From assembly GCA_963737655.1 (NCBI GenBank), contig CAVTTN010000002.1:4800001-4864000 (forward strand): a DNA stretch of 64,000 nucleotides, given 5' to 3'. Below are positions 40,812-55,634 of the stretch, piece by piece. Position numbers and translations under genes: made by a program. How positions within the stretch are numbered: the first letter of the stretch is position 1; every line of letters starts with the position of its first letter. The stretch is from an uncultured Planctomycetota bacterium (GTDB lineage: Bacteria; Planctomycetota; Planctomycetia; Isosphaerales; Isosphaeraceae). Below the pieces are notes generated by a model that did no database searches, had not been told where the DNA came from, and saw only the letters and a program-made list of their open reading frames with translations.

Positions 40812-40974
40812 CGGGTGGAGCTCCCGAATCTGGGGTTTGTTCGGGTGCCCCCGGTTCTTGAACCGGGGCGGCGCAGCCGCAAGAGGCCGCTCGGGAAGTC
40901 CTGCGGTGCCTCGTGCGTCTGCGCCGCCCCGGTTCGAGAACCGGGGGCACCCCAGAAGTTCCAGAATCCAGAGC
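40812..40974. repeat. REP/MITE-like element, family D, doublet form
   Basis: Two CCCCGGTT-N4-AACCGGGG palindromes with a spacer; same outer flanks as 27251-27335. Confidence 0.85.
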
Positions 40975-45515: not shown

Positions 45516-46544
45516 TCAGTGACCGACCATCTCCAGCCACTTTTCGCAGTCAATCGCCGCCGAGCAGCCCGAGCCGGCCGCCGTGATCGCCTGCCGATAG
45601 TGCGTGTCCACCACGTCCCCGCAGGCGAACACCCCCTCGATGTTCGTCGCCGTCCCGTAATTCGGCAGGTCCGAACTCTTCAACGGGCCGGACCCCGAAT
45701 CGTCCCACGCCAGCGCATTCCTCGTCAAAAGGTAGCCGCTGGGCGTCATCGCGAGCTGCCCCTCGAACACCTTCGTGTTCGGGACGTGGCCGATCGCCAG
45801 GAACAGGCCGTCGATCGGCAAGTCGCGGGTCGAGCCGTCCACGGTGGACTTCAGCGTCAGCCCCTTGACGACCTTGTGAGGCTCCAGGTCGCCGTGGACC
45901 GCGTCCACCACCGAATTCCAGGCGAATTCCAGCTTGGGGTTCTTCATCGCCCGTTCCTGCATGATCTTCGAGGCGCGGAGCGAGTCTCGGCGATGGATCA
46001 ACGTCACCTTGCTGGCATAGCGGGTGAGGAACGTGGCCTCCTCGACGGCCGAATCCCCCCCGCCGACCACCGCGATCGGCCGGTTCTTGTAGAAGGCCCC
46101 GTCGCAGGTGGCGCAGGTGCTCACCCCTTCGCCCCGGAACGGCCGCTCCGAGGGCACGTCGTCCAGCCACCGGGCCGAGGCGCCGGTGGCCACGATCACG
46201 GCGTCGGCCGTGTACTCGGCATGCTCGCCCGAGGGGTCGCCGGAGGGGTCGGTCGTGGTCGTCAGGCGGAACGGCCTCTTCGACAGGTCGGCGGCGATCA
46301 CGGTCTCGAACCGGGCGTCGGCCCCGAACCGGACGGCCTGCTTCTCCATCCGCTCCATGAGCTCGGGGCCGATGATCCCCTCGGGGAACCCGGGGAAGTT
46401 ATCGACCTCGGTCGTCCAGGTCAGTTGCCCGCCCGGCTCCCGGCCCTTGAAGACCAAAGGACGCAGGTTGGCCCGGGCGGCATAAAGGGCGGCGGTGTAC
46501 CCGGCGGAACCGGACCCGATGATGATCACGGAAAAATGCGGCAT
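45516..46544 (-). CDS. trxB: Thioredoxin reductase
   Basis: GSGSAG, CATCDG, GGGDSA, HRRD and GDVVD..YRQAITAAG motifs. Confidence 0.96.
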   Translation of the reverse strand: MPHFSVIIIGSGSAGYTAALYAARANLRPLVFKGREPGGQLTWTTEVDNFPGFPEGIIGPELMERMEKQAVRFGADARFETVIAADLSKRPFRLTTTTDPSGDPSGEHAEYTADAVIVATGASARWLDDVPSERPFRGEGVSTCATCDGAFYKNRPIAVVGGGDSAVEEATFLTRYASKVTLIHRRDSLRASKIMQERAMKNPKLEFAWNSVVDAVHGDLEPHKVVKGLTLKSTVDGSTRDLPIDGLFLAIGHVPNTKVFEGQLAMTPSGYLLTRNALAWDDSGSGPLKSSDLPNYGTATNIEGVFACGDVVDTHYRQAITAAGSGCSAAIDCEKWLEMVGH

Positions 46545-47029
46545 CGTTCCCTCAAGGCCAGGGGAGGAAGGCGGACGACCCATCCCGCCGGGCGGCACCC
46601 ATTATTCTACGGCCGAGGGGAAAATACCACGAGTCGCCAACCCAAGAACCTCGCCCCGGGTCCGTACCCGGCGAGTCACCAGCGGGACGGGCCCCGGAGT
46701 TCGATCCCATCTCTCCCTCGAACCCCGGTCGCCCCGCGGACTAACATGAAAAGATCCACAATTTTGATTTCGAAGGCGGGAACGGCGGCCCAAAGGTCCA
46801 GGCCAAGGCCACTCGCATTAGTTATCGGGGCGCGACGACCATTAATCATACACGTACGCATATTGGGGTTTTTCTCTTTGAATTCCCGGGCGGAATCCGG
46901 GATCACGTCGAAGAGCAGGGACGGGGCGGCGTCTCAATCGACGAATCGAGGAGGAGCTGGATCGAAAAGCCTTGCGGAGGGTGTTTCCCGCCGGCAAAAT
47001 AAAATCCGCCAGGGATTACGCGTCATTTC

Positions 47030-47049
47030 CGACGTCTACTCCACGTTAG
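47030..47049 (+). other. Putative integron attI site, interrupted by IS110
   Basis: cgacgtctac-tccac-GTTAG. The reconstructed core is GTTAGGC, and no attC-style hairpin lies upstream. Confidence 0.55.
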
Positions 47050-47287
47050 TCGCCATGCCGCGAGTGGCACCCTGAGACGATGAAAATGGGCCGCGACCGA
47101 GGTAGACTCGGGGTGCCGCACGCACGTCGGGTCCCGGCCGTCGTCGCCTGGTGCCGCGAGCCCGCGTGTTAGTCTGGCCCGGACATCGCGCCGCATCCGA
47201 GACTGTCGCCCCCGCCCGGGGAGCACGCAGAACAGAGTGTTCTTCCACGCGATGTCCCCCGGCGTGCGTCGGCGGGGGGGGTTCGCC
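47050..47287 (+). ncRNA. Putative IS110 bridge RNA (seekRNA) in the 5' non-coding end; exact RNA ends unknown
   Basis: Guide-like segments cgtgttag (47165-72), cgccgc (47189-94), cagaacag (47228-35) and gcga (47249-52); each pair is separated by a small hairpin. Confidence 0.7.
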
Positions 47288-48526
47288 ATGCAGGTGCTCC
47301 ATCGCTGTTGCGCGGGGTTGGACATCCACAAGGATACCGTCGTCGCCTGCGTCCGCCGCGTCGATGACACGGGCAAGGCCCGCTCGCAAGTACGGACCTT
47401 CGGGACCATGACCGGGGCCTTGATCGAGCTGGCTGATCGGCTGGCCGAGCAGGGCGTCGTCCACGTCGCGATGGAGTCGACCGGCGTGTACTGGAAGCCG
47501 GTCTGGCACCTGCTGGAGGGGCGGTTCGAGCCGATGCTGGTCAACGCCCAGCACATCAAGCAGGTGCCGGGCCGCAAGACCGACGTCAAGGATTGCCAGT
47601 GGATCGCCGAGTTGCTCCAGCACGGCCTGCTCAAGGCCAGCTTCGTGCCGCCGGAGCCGATCCGCGAGCTGCGCGACCTGACGAGGCAGCGGGCGCAGAT
47701 CGTCGCCGAGCGGGGCTCGGTCGCCAACCGCATCCAGGGGGTGCTGGAGGACGCCAACATCAAGCTCGGCTCGGTGGCCACCGACGTGCTGGGCGACTCG
47801 GGTCGCGCCATGTTGCGGGCGTTGATCGAGGGCCAGGACGACCCGGAGGCCCCGGCGGAATTGGCCAAGGGGCGGCTGCGGGCCAAGATCCCGGCGCTGC
47901 GGCTGGCGCTTCGCGGGAAGGTGACGGAGCACCACCGCTTCCTGCTGCGGCTCCTGCTGGACCACTACGAGGCGCCGGAGGCCCTGATCGGCCGACTGGG
48001 GGAGCGGATCGACCGGGTGCTGGCGCCGTACGCCGAGGCGGTGGAGCGGCTGGAGACGATCCCCGGGGTCGGCCGCCGGGTCGCCGAGATCGTCGTCGCG
48101 GAGCTGGGCGTGGAGATGGGGCAGTTCCCGACGGCTCGCCACCTGGCGAGCTGGGCCGGGATGTGCCCCGGGAACAACGAGAGCGCCGGCAAGCGCCGCA
48201 GCGGCAAGACGACCAAGGGGAGCCGCTGGCTACGGACGGCCCTGATCCAGGCGGCGCACGCGGCGGGCCGGAGCAAGGCGACGTATCTGGGGTCGCAGTA
48301 CCGTCGGCTGGCATCGCGGCGCGGGGCGAAGCGAGCGGCGGTGGCGGTGGGCCATACGCTGCCGGGGATCATCTACGAAGTCCTGGGCCGGGGGACGACC
48401 TACGAGGATCTAGGCCCCTGCTACCTGGAGCGGTTGGAGCCCGAGCGATTGACCCGGCAACCGGTCAGGCGCTTGGAACGGCTCGGCCACAAGGTTACAT
48501 TGGAACCCAACGAGGCGGCCGCGTAG
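47288..48526 (+). CDS. IS110-family DEDD transposase/recombinase
   Basis: GLDIHK, MESTGVYW, KTDVKD, TIPGVG and NNESAGK motifs. Confidence 0.95.
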   Translation: MQVLHRCCAGLDIHKDTVVACVRRVDDTGKARSQVRTFGTMTGALIELADRLAEQGVVHVAMESTGVYWKPVWHLLEGRFEPMLVNAQHIKQVPGRKTDVKDCQWIAELLQHGLLKASFVPPEPIRELRDLTRQRAQIVAERGSVANRIQGVLEDANIKLGSVATDVLGDSGRAMLRALIEGQDDPEAPAELAKGRLRAKIPALRLALRGKVTEHHRFLLRLLLDHYEAPEALIGRLGERIDRVLAPYAEAVERLETIPGVGRRVAEIVVAELGVEMGQFPTARHLASWAGMCPGNNESAGKRRSGKTTKGSRWLRTALIQAAHAAGRSKATYLGSQYRRLASRRGAKRAAVAVGHTLPGIIYEVLGRGTTYEDLGPCYLERLEPERLTRQPVRRLERLGHKVTLEPNEAAA

Positions 48527-48562
48527 GGCGCATTTTCAGAACAGGCGGCGGAGGCGATCTCG

Positions 48563-49111
48563 ATGAAGTTATCCTTCGTCCTTGAATCTATTGCCGTCGT
48601 CTCCGTCGGCCTCGGCCTGGCGCGATGGCACATCCAAGATCCGGTTTACGCCGAAGGCTACGCGGATTCCGGGGGGGCCGAGTGGCTCAGGCAGGTAGGC
48701 GACGGTTTCTTCGCGGGGGTCGCCGTCGCCGGGTTCCTCGGGCTAATGGTCGAGGTCGCTGCACGGCGGTCTCCCCGACCCTGGGGCCTGGGCCGATGGG
48801 CCTGGTCGGTTGTCGGCCTCTTCGTCGTCTCGCGGCATGCCTTGGGCGTGGTATTCGACGCGATCGTGCATTGGTACATGGGGATGATGAAGGAGTTCGC
48901 CGCAGATCTCCTCCCGCGTCTTCGCGCCAATCTGTGCCATTGGCTGCTCGCTATCGCACCTTATCTCATCATTGCGGTTTGGACGACGCGTTGGGTGTCG
49001 GGACCGAAGGCCGGCCGCGCCGATGGACGGGAGTGGGCCGGCCGGATCTTTGGGATCCTCATCATCGTGACGATGGTTGTCATTGATTGCCTCGCTACAG
49101 CCGGGTTTTGA
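48563..49111 (+). CDS. Integron cassette 1: hypothetical multi-TM membrane protein
   Basis: GGAGG RBS, lower GC, stop 11 bp before attC1. Confidence 0.75.
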   Translation: MKLSFVLESIAVVSVGLGLARWHIQDPVYAEGYADSGGAEWLRQVGDGFFAGVAVAGFLGLMVEVAARRSPRPWGLGRWAWSVVGLFVVSRHALGVVFDAIVHWYMGMMKEFAADLLPRLRANLCHWLLAIAPYLIIAVWTTRWVSGPKAGRADGREWAGRIFGILIIVTMVVIDCLATAGF

Positions 49112-49122
49112 TCATATGTGCC

Positions 49123-49222
49123 GCCTAACCTTGCGCTGCAGCGGACCCCGCACCGCCACGGTATCTTTGGTATCATCAACATCAACTCGGCGGTGCGTGT
49201 CCGCTGAGCTTGGTTGTTAGGC
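49123..49222 (+). other. attC site 1 (100 bp)
   Basis: GCCTAAC...GCTGCAGCGGAC...GTCCGCTGAGC...GTTAGGC imperfect palindrome. Confidence 0.92.
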
Positions 49223-49233
49223 CGAGGGGAAGC

Positions 49234-49746
49234 ATGCCCGAGCCAACCCGACCGAACGCCGTTTGCCGACTACTGGAAGCCGCTTACGGGCTGACCATCG
49301 AGCGGGTGTCGGCGCTGCCGGACGGGGACGCGGAGCGGATCGCCGCCTGGCGAGTCGCGGAGCGGGAGTTCGAGAACGCGGCCAAGGACTTCATTACGAT
49401 CGCGGCGACCACGGATTTGATCCCGGCCGGAGAGGAGCGCCTCCGAGTGGCGCTCATCGCCGCCGTCCAGACCCTGTGGGCGCGGCAGTGGACGACCGCC
49501 GCGACTGGAACGGACGCCGAGTTCGAGACGCTCCGCCGGGGGCAGAAACCCTGGGTGTTTCAACTGCTGGCCCTGCTCAGCGCGACGCGCCGAGCCGAGT
49601 CTGAGACGGACGTCGGGAGGTGGTTCATGCTGCACGGAGTCTCATACCCCAACCGCTACCGCGAGCCGCGTCACCAGGAATTGTTCGAGGTCCTCGTGCG
49701 GCTGGCGCGGGAGGAGCTATCAGCGGCGGCCGAGATCCGGGCCTAA
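49234..49746 (+). CDS. Integron cassette 2: hypothetical protein
   Basis: Starts 11 bp after attC1; its TAA stop lies inside the GCCTAAC box of attC2, as is typical for cassettes. Confidence 0.8.
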   Translation: MPEPTRPNAVCRLLEAAYGLTIERVSALPDGDAERIAAWRVAEREFENAAKDFITIAATTDLIPAGEERLRVALIAAVQTLWARQWTTAATGTDAEFETLRRGQKPWVFQLLALLSATRRAESETDVGRWFMLHGVSYPNRYREPRHQELFEVLVRLAREELSAAAEIRA

Positions 49747-49840
49747 CCTCGCGCTGCAGCGGACCCGGCCCGCCGCGACGCTTTCTGGTAACACGGATGC
49801 CACTCTCGGCGGGCCGGGCCGCTGAGCTTCGGCGTTAGGC
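49741..49840 (+). other. attC site 2 (100 bp)
   Basis: GCCTAAC...GCTGCAGCGGACCCGGCCCGCCG...CGGCGGGCCGGGCCGCTGAGC...GTTAGGC. Confidence 0.92.
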
Positions 49841-49908
49841 GGCGATAGCGGGGGTTGGCCTTGCCGCGGGTTTCCGTTCTGGATGCAGCGAAAACGTGGA
49901 GAAGATCG

Positions 49909-50289
49909 ATGCCAATTCCAGAAAGCATAGGTGCCTTTGCCATCGTTCCTAGCAACGATCTGCCGGCCGCGATTCCGTTCTGGGAGCGTTTGGGTTTCGC
50001 TCGGACGGGTGGTGACAACGCGTACATAATCATGACCGGCTGGGGGTGCGAAGTGCATCTCACCCAAGCCGGCCCGGACGCCTGGCGGGTTCCGGAAGCA
50101 CACAATCCGTTCGGCGTATTCATCCGCACCCCGGACGTTGACGCCATTGCGGCACGCGTCGATGACCTGATCATCCGACCTGGCGGAGTCCTTCGTCACC
50201 GAGAGTGGGGACTTTATGAGGTCGGAATCTGTGGGCCGGACGGCATGCTCGTGCGTATCGGCTGGCCATCTAAACTGATAAAAGCGTAG
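49909..50289 (+). CDS. Integron cassette 3: VOC/glyoxalase (bleomycin-resistance-like) protein
   Basis: DLPAAIPFWERLGF...EWGLYEV.ICGPDG.LVRIG. Confidence 0.85.
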   Translation: MPIPESIGAFAIVPSNDLPAAIPFWERLGFARTGGDNAYIIMTGWGCEVHLTQAGPDAWRVPEAHNPFGVFIRTPDVDAIAARVDDLIIRPGGVLRHREWGLYEVGICGPDGMLVRIGWPSKLIKA

Positions 50290-50691
50290 ACGCCATCGTC
50301 CTATCTCAGCCGCCTCTTCGTGAACTCTTCTCCATAGAACGGCCGTCGATGCGCAACATTCCCCCGACCCCTGGCCTTGTGGCCGGGCAGCGACGAGGTC
50401 CGGGTGGCAATCCGACGGATTCGGGATCGGCGATCGAGGCGCGGGCCAAGAGGGGAATCGGTTACGTTTGCAGTCTCTTCGACGGGGACATCCCCGCGAG
50501 TCGCCGCGCGGGGCGTCGCCGATGACCGGATCACGACCTCTCGGGCCAGGCTAACCTACGGGCATGGAGCACCGAGGTGGATACGGCCACCGACCCGCGC
50601 CACGAACCGGGCTACGCCGCGCCGGGTCGGTGGGCAAGTCGGCCCCGGCCCCCGTTCACGCCCCCTCGGGAGCGGACGAAGGCCGCAGGAT

Positions 50692-50791
50692 GGTTAACCT
50701 CGCGCTGCAGAGGACCCCGCACCGCCGCGGCGCCCACCGTGCTATTATCGCCGTCTCGGCGGTGCGAGTCCGCCGAGCTTGGTCGTTCGAG
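50692..50791 (+). other. attC site 3 (100 bp, terminal, slightly degenerate)
   Basis: GGTTAACCTCGCGCTGCAGAGGACCCCGCACCGCCG...CGGCGGTGCGAGTCCGCCGAGCTTGGTCGTTCGAG; closely similar to attC1. Confidence 0.85.
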
Positions 50792-54317: not shown

Positions 54318-54340
54318 CCTTCCTGTATTGATGGATCGTG

Positions 54341-54490
54341 TGACATTCATACGTATTCGTAAGCATGTCTTCGATCAGGATCGAGTCGAATATGTTTGAC
54401 TTATAATCATATAAATTTTATGTTAAACACCTATTGATTAGGTCGCTATCGAACCGAAGACATGCTTACGAGGACGTAAGCATGCCACCC
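54341..54490. repeat. Family-A inverted doublet with AT-rich spacer, overlapping the cbiD 3' end
   Basis: cgtaagcatgtcttcg ... cgaagacatgcttacgaggacgtaagcatgccaccc. Confidence 0.75.
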
Positions 54491-55634
54491 GGGGGAGAGG
54501 TCTCGCGCGCAGCGCGTTCCCTTCGAAATCGAACAGGATGACTTCGATTTCCGGCCCTCCGCCGGCGTGATCCCGGCAGTTCCGGGCCGCTCGCGAGGCG
54601 ACGAGGCGATAGAACGGCTCGAAGCCGGCCGAGTCGATCAGGTCTTCCACGTGACGGCCCGTGTTTGCTGCTTCGATCTGGCGGACCAGCGAATCGTCGG
54701 CGCCGGCCTCCCTCGCGAGCCCGGCGAGGAACGTCAGATCGACGCCTCCGCCCGCGACATGGGTTTGCATCCGTCCGGCGGCCAGCTTGGCGAGCTTGCC
54801 GATCATCCCGCAGATCGTGACCTTGGGCACGCCCCGCTCGACGGCCCGTTTCAGGGCCTCGCCGGTGAAGATGCCCATCTGCACGAAGGCCATTTCGGGG
54901 AGCTCGGGGTAGACCCCGGCCGCGAATCGTTCGGATCGGCCGCCGGTGGTCAGGACCAGGTGATCGAGGCTGTTCGCCGCCGCGACGTCGATCGACTGGA
55001 GGACCGACGCCCGCCAGCTCGCCGTGCTCATCGGCCGGACCACGCCGGTCGTGCCCAGGATCGAGAGGCCGCCGACGATCCCGATCCGCGAGTTCAGCGT
55101 CTTCCTGGCCAGCTCCTCGCCCCCGGGGATCGCGATCACGACCTCCACGCCGGGCTCGGGCCGATCGGTCCCATAAACCATCGCCACGCCTTCCAGGATC
55201 ATCGTCCGGGGGACCGGATTGATGGCCGGCGAGCCCGGGGGCAGCTCCAGTCCGGGCTGGGTGATCGTGCCGACGCCTTCGCCGCCCAGAATCCTCACGC
55301 CCGGCTCGCCCCCTCGGCGGACGGTCGCGAGGACCTCGGCCCCGTGGGTCACGTCGGGGTCGTCCCCGGCGTCCTTGACGACTCCGGCCAGGGCCGTGCC
55401 GTTTTCGTATCGCAATCGGTTGATCGGAATGGTCAGGTCGAACCCCAGGGGCGATCGCACGAGGACCGAGTCCGGCCTCTCGTCGCGGTCGAGCAGTCTG
55501 CAGGCGGCCTGGGCGGCGGCGGCGGCCGAGGCCCCGGTGGTGAACCCCTCGCGCATCCCCTTGGGGTCCCTGGGCGGGACGGTCAGGCCCCGGCAGATCT
55601 CGACCGGCGATCGGGCCGGGGCCTCCGCGTTCAT
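54438..55634 (-). CDS. cbiD: Cobalt-precorrin-5B C1-methyltransferase
   Basis: GFTTGASAAAA, KDAGDDPDVTHG, AINPVPR and GGLSILGTTG motifs. Confidence 0.95.
   Translation of the reverse strand: MNAEAPARSPVEICRGLTVPPRDPKGMREGFTTGASAAAAAQAACRLLDRDERPDSVLVRSPLGFDLTIPINRLRYENGTALAGVVKDAGDDPDVTHGAEVLATVRRGGEPGVRILGGEGVGTITQPGLELPPGSPAINPVPRTMILEGVAMVYGTDRPEPGVEVVIAIPGGEELARKTLNSRIGIVGGLSILGTTGVVRPMSTASWRASVLQSIDVAAANSLDHLVLTTGGRSERFAAGVYPELPEMAFVQMGIFTGEALKRAVERGVPKVTICGMIGKLAKLAAGRMQTHVAGGGVDLTFLAGLAREAGADDSLVRQIEAANTGRHVEDLIDSAGFEPFYRLVASRAARNCRDHAGGGPEIEVILFDFEGNALRARPLPRVACLRPRKHVFGSIAT

Follow-up and report, generated by a model that had tools for sequence, protein, structure and literature searches.

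A predicted bridge RNA of an IS110-family element spells the integron recombination core in an uncultured planctomycete

Introduction

How does a small insertion sequence (IS) come to stand inside the recombination core of an integron, and is this site read by an RNA that the element encodes itself? The question is raised by a stretch of 64,000 nucleotides from an uncultured bacterium of the Planctomycetota (Isosphaeraceae; assembly GCA_963737655.1, contig CAVTTN010000002.1, positions 4,800,001 to 4,864,000 of the forward strand), called the window hereafter and providing the coordinates unless a locus is named. An intact IS110-family element of 1,495 bp, TCGCC...CAGAACAG, occupies 47050-48544 (+), with 238 nt of non-coding DNA 5' of its open reading frame (ORF) and 18 nt 3' of it. 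With high confidence, we interpret the locus as an intact IS110-family IS with RNA-guided conservative recombination at a 2-nt core, an upstream bridge RNA (bRNA) in sense orientation, an IS1111-like order of guides, and guides that spell the integron core.

The reference for such a reading is IS621, where, according to the available text of the two reports, each bRNA loop runs from a stem over the bottom-strand guide (left target guide, LTG, or left donor guide, LDG), a stem-loop and the top-strand guide (right target guide, RTG, or right donor guide, RDG) to the handshake, and where the core CT, with a nearly invariant T, lies within all four pairings (PMC11208160, PMC11208158). For the seekRNAs of the IS1111 family, with the non-coding region downstream, the reversed order is described, while the IS110-type ISEc21 follows the order of IS621 (PMC11187229, available text). 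An initial annotation of the window had adopted the IS621 order and proposed cgtgttag at 47165-72 as LTG, cgccgc at 47189-94 as RTG, cagaacag at 47228-35, repeated at the right end (RE) of the element at 48537-44, as LDG and gcga at 47249-52 as RDG, to be read against the left flank cacgttag (47042-49), the right flank gcggcg (48545-50) and the start tcgc (47050-53) of the left end (LE). All these strings are found where they had been placed; the roles of two of the four proposed guides turned out to differ.

Results

A scan of species-representative genomes recovered 589 relatives among 608 matched stretches. Restriction to the best 80 left 78 loci, which show 50-72% identity at the amino-acid level and belong to Planctomycetota, Terriglobia, Chloroflexota, Actinomycetota and other groups. 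The non-coding region was aligned for 71 sequences, including the Streptomyces members L019 and L027, and the 49 loci with cleanly placed ends yielded 36 guide sets; 35 representatives make up the structure alignment, as L046 was removed from the 36 because its 'left end' is a self-match inside the bRNA. Each guide was compared with the flank or end of the same element and with those of the other elements (own versus cross). In the alignment of 71 sequences, a conserved scaffold flanks two variable blocks, 47165-74 and 47228-35 of the window.

The first block contains the LTG CGUGUUAG (47165-72, +) and a 2-nt handshake, UC (47173-74), which equals the first two nucleotides of LE. The left target half with the core, CACGTT + AG (47042-49, +), agrees with the LTG at six of eight positions, and the two mismatches are compatible with G·U/G·T wobble, as had been annotated. 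Among distinct guide sets, the LTG 10-mer finds its own upstream flank with at most two mismatches in 42 of 53 cases as compared to 160 of 2,750 cross pairs. In sets located by the 8-mer alone, the handshake equals LE +1,+2 in 20 of 27 (two of the 20, L012 and L046, being self-hits) versus 13% of cross pairs. The second block is the LDG CAGAACAG at 47228-35, followed by AG (47228-37, +), an exact copy of RE at 48537-44; on the + strand of the 64-kb window this 8-mer occurs twice only, as guide and as right end, and CGTGTTAG has a single occurrence on that strand. For the LDG 8-mer, an exact match lies 3' of the stop codon of the same element in 29 of the 53 distinct guide sets, but in only 12 of 2,726 cross pairs.

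The right end can also be located independently of any guide, since ATTTTC-N5-AG stands 3' of the stop codon in most homologs, with AA or AC replacing AG in a few. The RE 8-mer located by this motif is found exactly in the own upstream 330 nt at 33 of 64 usable loci, as compared to 91 of 3,920 cross pairs. In most cases the start codon follows at a distance of 55-90 nt; the copy in the window is at -60. In this comparison with 70 homologous elements, the own-versus-cross counts, the motif-located RE matches and the handshake together establish that the LTG and the LDG of the initial annotation are real guides. Contigs of a metagenomic relative of ~92% identity differ in one LTG base (T47167C), which fits the attC consensus and the window flank better.

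The right target guide, on the other hand, lies elsewhere. Every non-coding position was compared with the reverse complement of the core and the first six bases of the right flank, own versus cross, in the 36 guide sets with a tolerance of ±3 columns, and the sole peak is at 47141-42 (5.36 versus 3.94 of 8 matches, t = 7.0). The RTG is thus CGUCGCCU at 47142-49 (+), which pairs with the top strand AG^GCGGCG (the caret marks the insertion point) at 8/8 positions including one G·U, carries the invariant U47149 and stands 5' of the LTG.

This bears directly on whether the initial map with its IS621 order could be correct in all four positions. It can be said in its favour that all four strings are present, that cgccgc matches the reverse complement of the flank's first six bases at every position and that, in the minimum free energy (MFE) fold of the single sequence, the outer G/C runs are paired in the way that had been drawn. 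However, both right-hand segments reside within helices with compensatory changes: in the donor module, cgccgc (47189-94, +) covers the stem extension, the 3-bp helix and a single loop base, and gcga (47249-52, +) belongs to the outer donor-loop stem as its 3' strand, pairing with 47186-89. The scan with the reverse complement of the right flank gave no signal at 47189 in the 36 guide sets, and CGAUGUCC is kept in homologs with other LE starts such as L008 (TGGC) and L009 (GGGT). Neither segment covaries with flanks or ends. Both matches are at chance level in a window of 69% G+C, with CGCCGC expected 0.24 times and GCGA 1.26 times per 130 nt, the latter occurring four times in the 238-nt non-coding region. 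The initial annotation had itself named a location in stems and a lack of covariation with the target as what would speak against a guide; as 47189-94 and 47249-52 are part of covarying stems or of the linker of the donor loop, they are refuted as guides on these terms. The exact initial map is judged very improbable.

The two left guides and the RTG fall into a common structure. RNAalifold and explicit pair counts over the 35 homologs resolve two tandem stem-loop modules with internal loops, the target module first. The target-binding loop (47136-79, +) is closed by a base stem GGCC 47136-39:GGCC 47176-79 and contains an inner stem 47149-54:47160-64, with changes on both sides in 4/4 and 4/5 pairs, respectively. 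The donor-binding loop (47181-257, +) comprises an outer stem 47181-88:47250-57 with changes on both sides in 8/8 pairs, extended in the window copy by 47189-90:47248-49, a 3-bp helix 47191-93:47238-40, an inner stem 47204-09:47223-27 and a terminal hairpin 47210-21. Over the 25 pairs of the consensus structure 93.2% of the cells are paired and 20 pairs are changed on both sides, whereas none of 500 shuffles reaches the observed pairing and slid partners give 28-51%. The enclosing donor-loop stems ccgggg/ccccgg and cccccgcc/ggcggggg drawn initially belong to the single-sequence MFE fold and are absent from the conserved structure. At the position of the core A, one base is invariant on all four loop sides in 35/35 sequences (A47171, A47234, U47149 and U47204), and the core is thus part of all four guide pairings, as in IS621-type bridge RNA.

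Two observations support the sense strand as the RNA strand, namely G·U pairs within the covarying stems and the spectrum of the 48 LTG-flank mismatches (40 distinct pairs), 17 of which are wobble-compatible for a sense RNA as compared to 4 for an antisense RNA. Together with the protein profiles, the covariation bears out that the region encodes a guide RNA of the bridge/seek type that belongs to an IS110-family RNA-guided transposase. Of the published order, the sequence of target module before donor module holds, but the order within the loop of LTG, stem-loop and RTG does not: as the RTG lies 5' of the LTG, it is IS1111-like.

The corresponding transposase gene runs from ATG 47288 to TAG 48526 (+) and is intact at full family length, encoding 412 amino acids. 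DEDD_Tnp_IS110 (PF01548, 9.5e-30) and Transposase_20 (PF02371, 1.1e-22) are recognized, and the NCBIfam model NF033542 'IS110 family RNA-guided transposase' scores 287 bits with a cut-off of 140. The closest solved structures are IS621 (8wt6, E = 1.6e-9) and ISCro4; in the alignment to 8wt6 the acidic DEDD residues and the serine of ES(A)G are aligned (GLD, MESTG, KTDVKD, GxxPxxxxES(A)G), the latter motif reading GMCPGNNESAG in this protein. The product is thus predicted to be an IS110-family RNA-guided transposase with a DEDD RuvC-like N-terminal domain and a C-terminal Tnp domain with the catalytic serine.

The ends of the element, on which the guide assignments depend, are fixed by two mini-elements of ~100 bp, a truncated second copy, an empty sister site and diverging metagenome contigs. 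Beyond the window copy, the genome of 7.63 Mb contains three relics. L002 is the truncated copy, 99% identical to 47831-48554, and shares the same 10 nt GCGGCGGAGG of right flank before it diverges. The break point of this copy is bordered by a tandem array of four units of ~19-21 nt (cgtccccttttcggcccca), at 1420-1500 of L002. The mini-elements L003 (1459-1545) and L004 (1455-1541, minus strand) consist of a left end TCGCCATGCCGCGAG..., ~40 unrelated bases and a right end CATTTTCAGAACAG, have lost all of the element but LE 1-46 and the final ~17 nt of RE, and carry inverted repeats of 10 bp, TGAAAATGGG and CCCATTTTCA. The flanks of the two mini-elements, catgttAG^...^gctcac and tgtgttAG^...^agctta, define the 1,495-bp element as 47050-48544, with an AG core. 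The left target half reads CATGTTAG and TGTGTTAG in these sister insertions, as compared to CACGTT + AG in the window.

The empty site was taken from a paralogous attI copy, L005, where the uninterrupted sister of the left flank reads ...CATGTTAG^GCGGGC. An orthologous empty site was sought in 30 relatives, but the match was limited to the part of a trxB-like gene (query 1-254); the integron array is strain-specific by this comparison of genome sequences. In public sequencing runs the shares were small (<=0.17) and the matching material consisted of contigs. The contigs of the ~92% relative, from a soil metagenome run, agree with the right flank through 48551 only and a contig of a second metagenome run agrees through 48552 only, while one contig of the first soil run (X1) joins 47091 to 48531 via 33 other letters and represents a further mini-element. 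Contigs of the RNA run X11 cover the ORF only.

Both ends show a conserved layout. At the left end (47050-69, +), CATG (47054-57) and a small hairpin (47056-59 with 47066-69) follow the variable right donor segment TCGC (47050-53), a layout conserved in the 35 aligned homologs; the elements of multi-copy families, with boundaries independent of the guides, likewise begin with 4-5 variable bases, after which come CATG and a small hairpin. The left sub-terminal inverted repeat (STIR) TGAAAATG at 47081-88 (+) is the reverse complement of the right one, CATTTTCA at 48531-38, which overlaps the left donor segment with the core, CAGAACAG at 48537-44, within the right end (48531-44, +). These 8-bp repeats are placed asymmetrically, 31 nt and 6 nt from the element ends, and ATGAAAATG is conserved in the left ends of homologs as is ATTTTC in the right ends.

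The site that has been struck is an integron recombination site. The left flank of the element (46960-47049, +) is an attI-type sequence ending in the core ...CCACGTTAG that aligns with the stretch immediately upstream of the only full intI (L086) and with orphan copies at L005 and L003, relative to which it has an internal deletion of ~65 nt. The right target half GCGGCGGAGG (48545-54, +) is the start of cassette 1, with a ribosome binding site followed by ATG 48563. The element thus separates an attI-type sequence from cassette 1 of an array with three attC sites (49124-49222, 49742-49840 and 50693-50791, +), the first two of which read GCCTAAC...GTTAGGC, and the insertion point lies inside the 7-bp core, after its fifth base. 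As imperfect palindromes with RYYYAAC...GTTRRRY bounds, and with arrays, intI and attI in the genome, these sequences are confidently predicted integron recombination sites. The genome encodes a single full IntI (TIGR02249, 474.6 bits with a cut-off of 265; C2:6.777 Mb, 1.9 Mb from the window), and a profile built from the three attC sites of the window finds 86 genome matches in clusters, one directly beside intI. Among 80 full-length attC matches, 60 end in GTTAGGC, 46 in GTTAG^GCGGC and 16 in GTTAG^GCGGCG; the latter 11-mer occurs 31 times genome-wide versus ~11 expected from base composition, with 28 of the 31 at most 40 nt from an attC match.

All four insertions of the element or its ~100-bp mini-derivatives in this genome are in integron sites or cassette arrays, three at the GTTAG^ core: beside the window copy, L004 splits a canonical attC R' core at GTTAG^AG, L003 splits an orphan attI core at GTTAG^GC, and the truncated L002 lies inside an attC cluster. 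In combination with the uninterrupted sister site, this corroborates the proposed target GTTAG^GC. The same insertions bear on the view that the element is a dead relic, the matches of which record one past insertion without present targeting of integron sites. Such a view could draw on the single full copy, the second being truncated, and on the two mismatches between the LTG and its own flank. Nevertheless, four separate insertions at or in integron sites, an ORF intact at full family length, intact loop and stem features throughout, and soil metagenome contigs in which the ~92% relative and a mini-element occur with identical right-flank bases make a dead relic very improbable, and little weight is given to it.

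How the left end is recognized is more intricate. The donor loop 5' side, CAUCCGAGACU at 47194-204 (+), ends in CU, which complements the core AG, and contains the invariant U47204; it would therefore be the equivalent of an RDG, but complements the core and the first LE base only. The bases LE +1,+2 track the handshake. Scans for an RDG with the reverse complement of the LE 5-mer, with that of the core plus six LE bases and with a wobble version gave no peak above t ~3 anywhere in the non-coding region. A different coupling was observed, as the LE segment ACCCTGAGAC (47069-78, +) covaries in the same sense with the donor loop 5' side: over the 35 homologs, 47069-78 and 47194-203 share 7.09/10 positions in own pairs and 5.15/10 in cross pairs, 0 of 5,000 permutations reach the own mean, and the reverse-complement control gives 3.1/10. 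Several joint changes are independent, such as CCTGGAAC in both segments of L030 and CACCACCT in both of L061. No third segment complementary to the donor loop 5' side was found in the region.

With respect to its surroundings, the region 46960-50791 is a degenerate integron without integrase, composed of the attI-type sequence, three cassettes and the three attC sites, the third of which is degenerate (GGTTAAC...GTTCGAG). The cassette ORFs are at 48563-49111, at ~49235-49746 and, for a glyoxalase-superfamily protein, at 49855-50289; upstream, on the minus strand, are FtsH and a thioredoxin-reductase-like gene. Genome-wide (C2), ~85 attC sites of one family are distributed over a single complete integron and at least eight clusters that lack an integrase (for example 283999-291450, 1673483-1681742, 1969902-1987189, 5877353-5893245 and 6778516-6794014), with orphan attI-type copies at L003 and L005. 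A non-coding repeat of ~240 nt without Rfam family, at 50300-50545 of the window and at 1200-1425 of L004 (minus strand), has 86% mean column identity when its two copies are aligned over their whole length and directly follows an attC site or cassette at both places. The window also holds two long inverted repeats, at 40843-40952 (54-nt arms, 87% complementary, 2 nt apart) and at 54337-54491 (37-nt arms, 84% complementary, 81 nt apart).

Discussion

The mechanism that these observations suggest involves a bridge RNA from the non-coding region of the left end, on the same strand as the transposase gene and at roughly 47095-47260, which would fold into two tandem stem-loop modules with internal loops. 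The target guides would read the target site, the UC handshake equals the first two bases of the element, and the donor loop 5' side, ending in ...ACU, would complement the core and the first LE base. The guides spell GTTAG^GCG(A/G)CG, the core common to attI and attC of this genome, and repeated insertions of the element are found there. Anatomy, covariation and insertion sites are observed in this set of sequences, and transcription, circle formation and catalysis are proposed by analogy with the family.

Several points weigh against this interpretation. Covariation is partly circular where guides were used for locating LE and RE, and 22 of the 71 aligned loci, the ends of which could not be placed cleanly, were left out of the covariation sets; non-circular support for the guides comes from the motif-located RE, the left boundaries of multi-copy families, the counts over 53 sets and the handshake counts. 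In the 36 guide sets, LE bases +3 to +5 covary with nothing and have no guide. The right flanks of the mini-elements (GCTCAC and AGCTTA) fit the RTG poorly, at ~2/6, so that either pairing of the right target is not strict or the mini-elements were moved by another element; 'half-match' behaviour named in 2026 preprints, as far as their available text goes, recalls this poor fit. In addition, the genome offers ~60 suitable core sites, yet has one full, one truncated and two mini copies only. Folded as a single sequence, 47050-47290 does not surpass its shuffled versions (z = -0.15). No Rfam family matches 46500-49000 at E up to 10 or the whole window at the gathering threshold, and a scan of 46900-47400 yielded neither a sigma-70-like promoter nor a terminator.

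The lack of an Rfam match and of a promoter-like site would suit an upstream region that is merely an mRNA leader or regulatory sequence, or a protein-binding end, with the target picked by the protein and the matches coincidental or historical, and the conserved CATG, hairpin and STIR in LE do resemble protein sites. But across phyla the guides change together with their own flanks and right ends, the mismatches are biased to wobble in the sense of the RNA, and the family is experimentally RNA-guided as far as described in the available text of PMC11208160, PMC11208158 and PMC11187229. A leader or protein site as the whole explanation is consequently judged very improbable, and a guide RNA remains the favoured reading.

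How does this guide RNA relate to known systems? The comparisons that follow draw on the available text of the cited sources. As in IS621, a DEDD + Ser recombinase is combined with a guide RNA in a long left end that precedes the gene. In both systems the target module stands before the donor module, each loop holds one guide per strand, both including the 2-nt core, the 3' guide is followed by a 2-nt handshake, and one core base is invariant, the other being looser. The protein is distant, though, with the match (E = 1.6e-9) covering the C-terminal part and 412 amino acids as compared to 328 residues in the solved IS621 chain; furthermore, the core on the bRNA strand is AG instead of CT, the guide order within the loop is reversed, an 8-bp sub-terminal inverted repeat is present, and RDG covariation is not seen beyond core +1. 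The initial annotation had contrasted the AG core with the CT core of IS621, where the reading as AG is right and the contrast is not, as one and the same core reads AG on one strand and CT on the other. On the transposase and bRNA strand, the A of the core never varies, while some homologs have A or C in place of G; the invariant base is T in IS621. In transposase sense, the top-strand guide stands 5' and the bottom-strand guide 3', followed by the handshake. Read on the other DNA strand, this layout is exactly that of IS621, and the crossover site is therefore inverted relative to the bRNA and transposase genes as compared to IS621.

Targeting of integrons by RNA-guided IS is not new. The attC-targeting IS1111 seekRNA elements ISKpn4, ISPst6 and ISPa25 (PMC11187229, PMC13604230) likewise act at integron recombination sites and have sub-terminal inverted repeats. 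In contrast to the element described here, their non-coding region is downstream of the transposase gene (tnp), and their transposase has 330-350 amino acids with GL-P----S(T)G in place of 412 amino acids with GMCPGNNESAG. ISKpn4 and ISPst6 insert at ...TTGAA^CG..., ~11 nt before GTTAG, and not inside the core at GTTAG^GC; attI-type sites besides attC are struck in the present case. ISEc21 (PMC11187229) shares the upstream non-coding region and short guides for both target strands, but has the top-strand match 3' of the bottom-strand match, which is 5' here. Two hallmarks of the IS1111/seekRNA group, sub-terminal inverted repeats of 7-17 bp (8 bp and conserved in homologs in this clade) and the top-strand match 5' of the bottom-strand match, are nevertheless found. 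The element thus mixes features of the two groups, combining an upstream non-coding region and a 412-amino-acid protein with an IS1111-like order and STIR.

There are also parallels to small and tandem or expanded IS110 loci (10.64898/2026.08.14.744561), including ~100-bp ends-only mini-elements, RE-like TTTTC-N5-AG before homologs and half-matched flanks. A number of homologs (L009, L016, L026, L030, L040, L041, L059 and others) stand directly 3' of a related RE-like sequence (TTC-N5-AG), with L026 preceded by a mini-element of ~67 nt, and in the right flanks of L010, L012 and L063 a left end follows directly. Such RE-like left flanks and LE right flanks are tandem or nested insertions.

The principle is thus already known from RNA-guided IS110/IS1111 elements and attC-targeting IS such as ISKpn4 and ISPst6, and layout and exact site are a variant of it. 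A literature search for bridge RNA with IS110 and attC, or with integron, returned no paper describing such an element, figures and supplements of two 2024 papers, which may already show the layout for other IS110 members such as ISAar29 or ISHne5, having been outside its scope. Tentatively, and with considerable doubt, the element may represent a third, undescribed RNA-guided IS110/IS1111 layout, possibly of the large-transposase 'IS110 proper' clade, with an upstream guide RNA, an inverted crossover, IS1111 order and a donor loop 5' side that, instead of the first LE bases, would read the LE segment 20-29 nt from the tip as distal recognition of the bottom donor strand, which is not reported for IS621 in the available text, the whole being programmed onto the attI/attC core.

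With respect to its meaning, the locus offers a natural and fully readable bridge RNA that would be programmed onto the integron core itself, in attI as well as in attC, by which one small element can interrupt cassette arrays or part them from their promoter at dozens of sites. The alignment of 35 sequences amounts to a guide map, with 8-nt guides on both sides, for a distant and widespread clade in Planctomycetota, Terriglobia, Chloroflexota and Actinomycetota. For tool building it follows that the guide order is not transferable from IS621, as two plausible 'guides' proved to be stems. The coupling of the left end with the donor loop, if functional, bears on how these recombinases recognize their left end.

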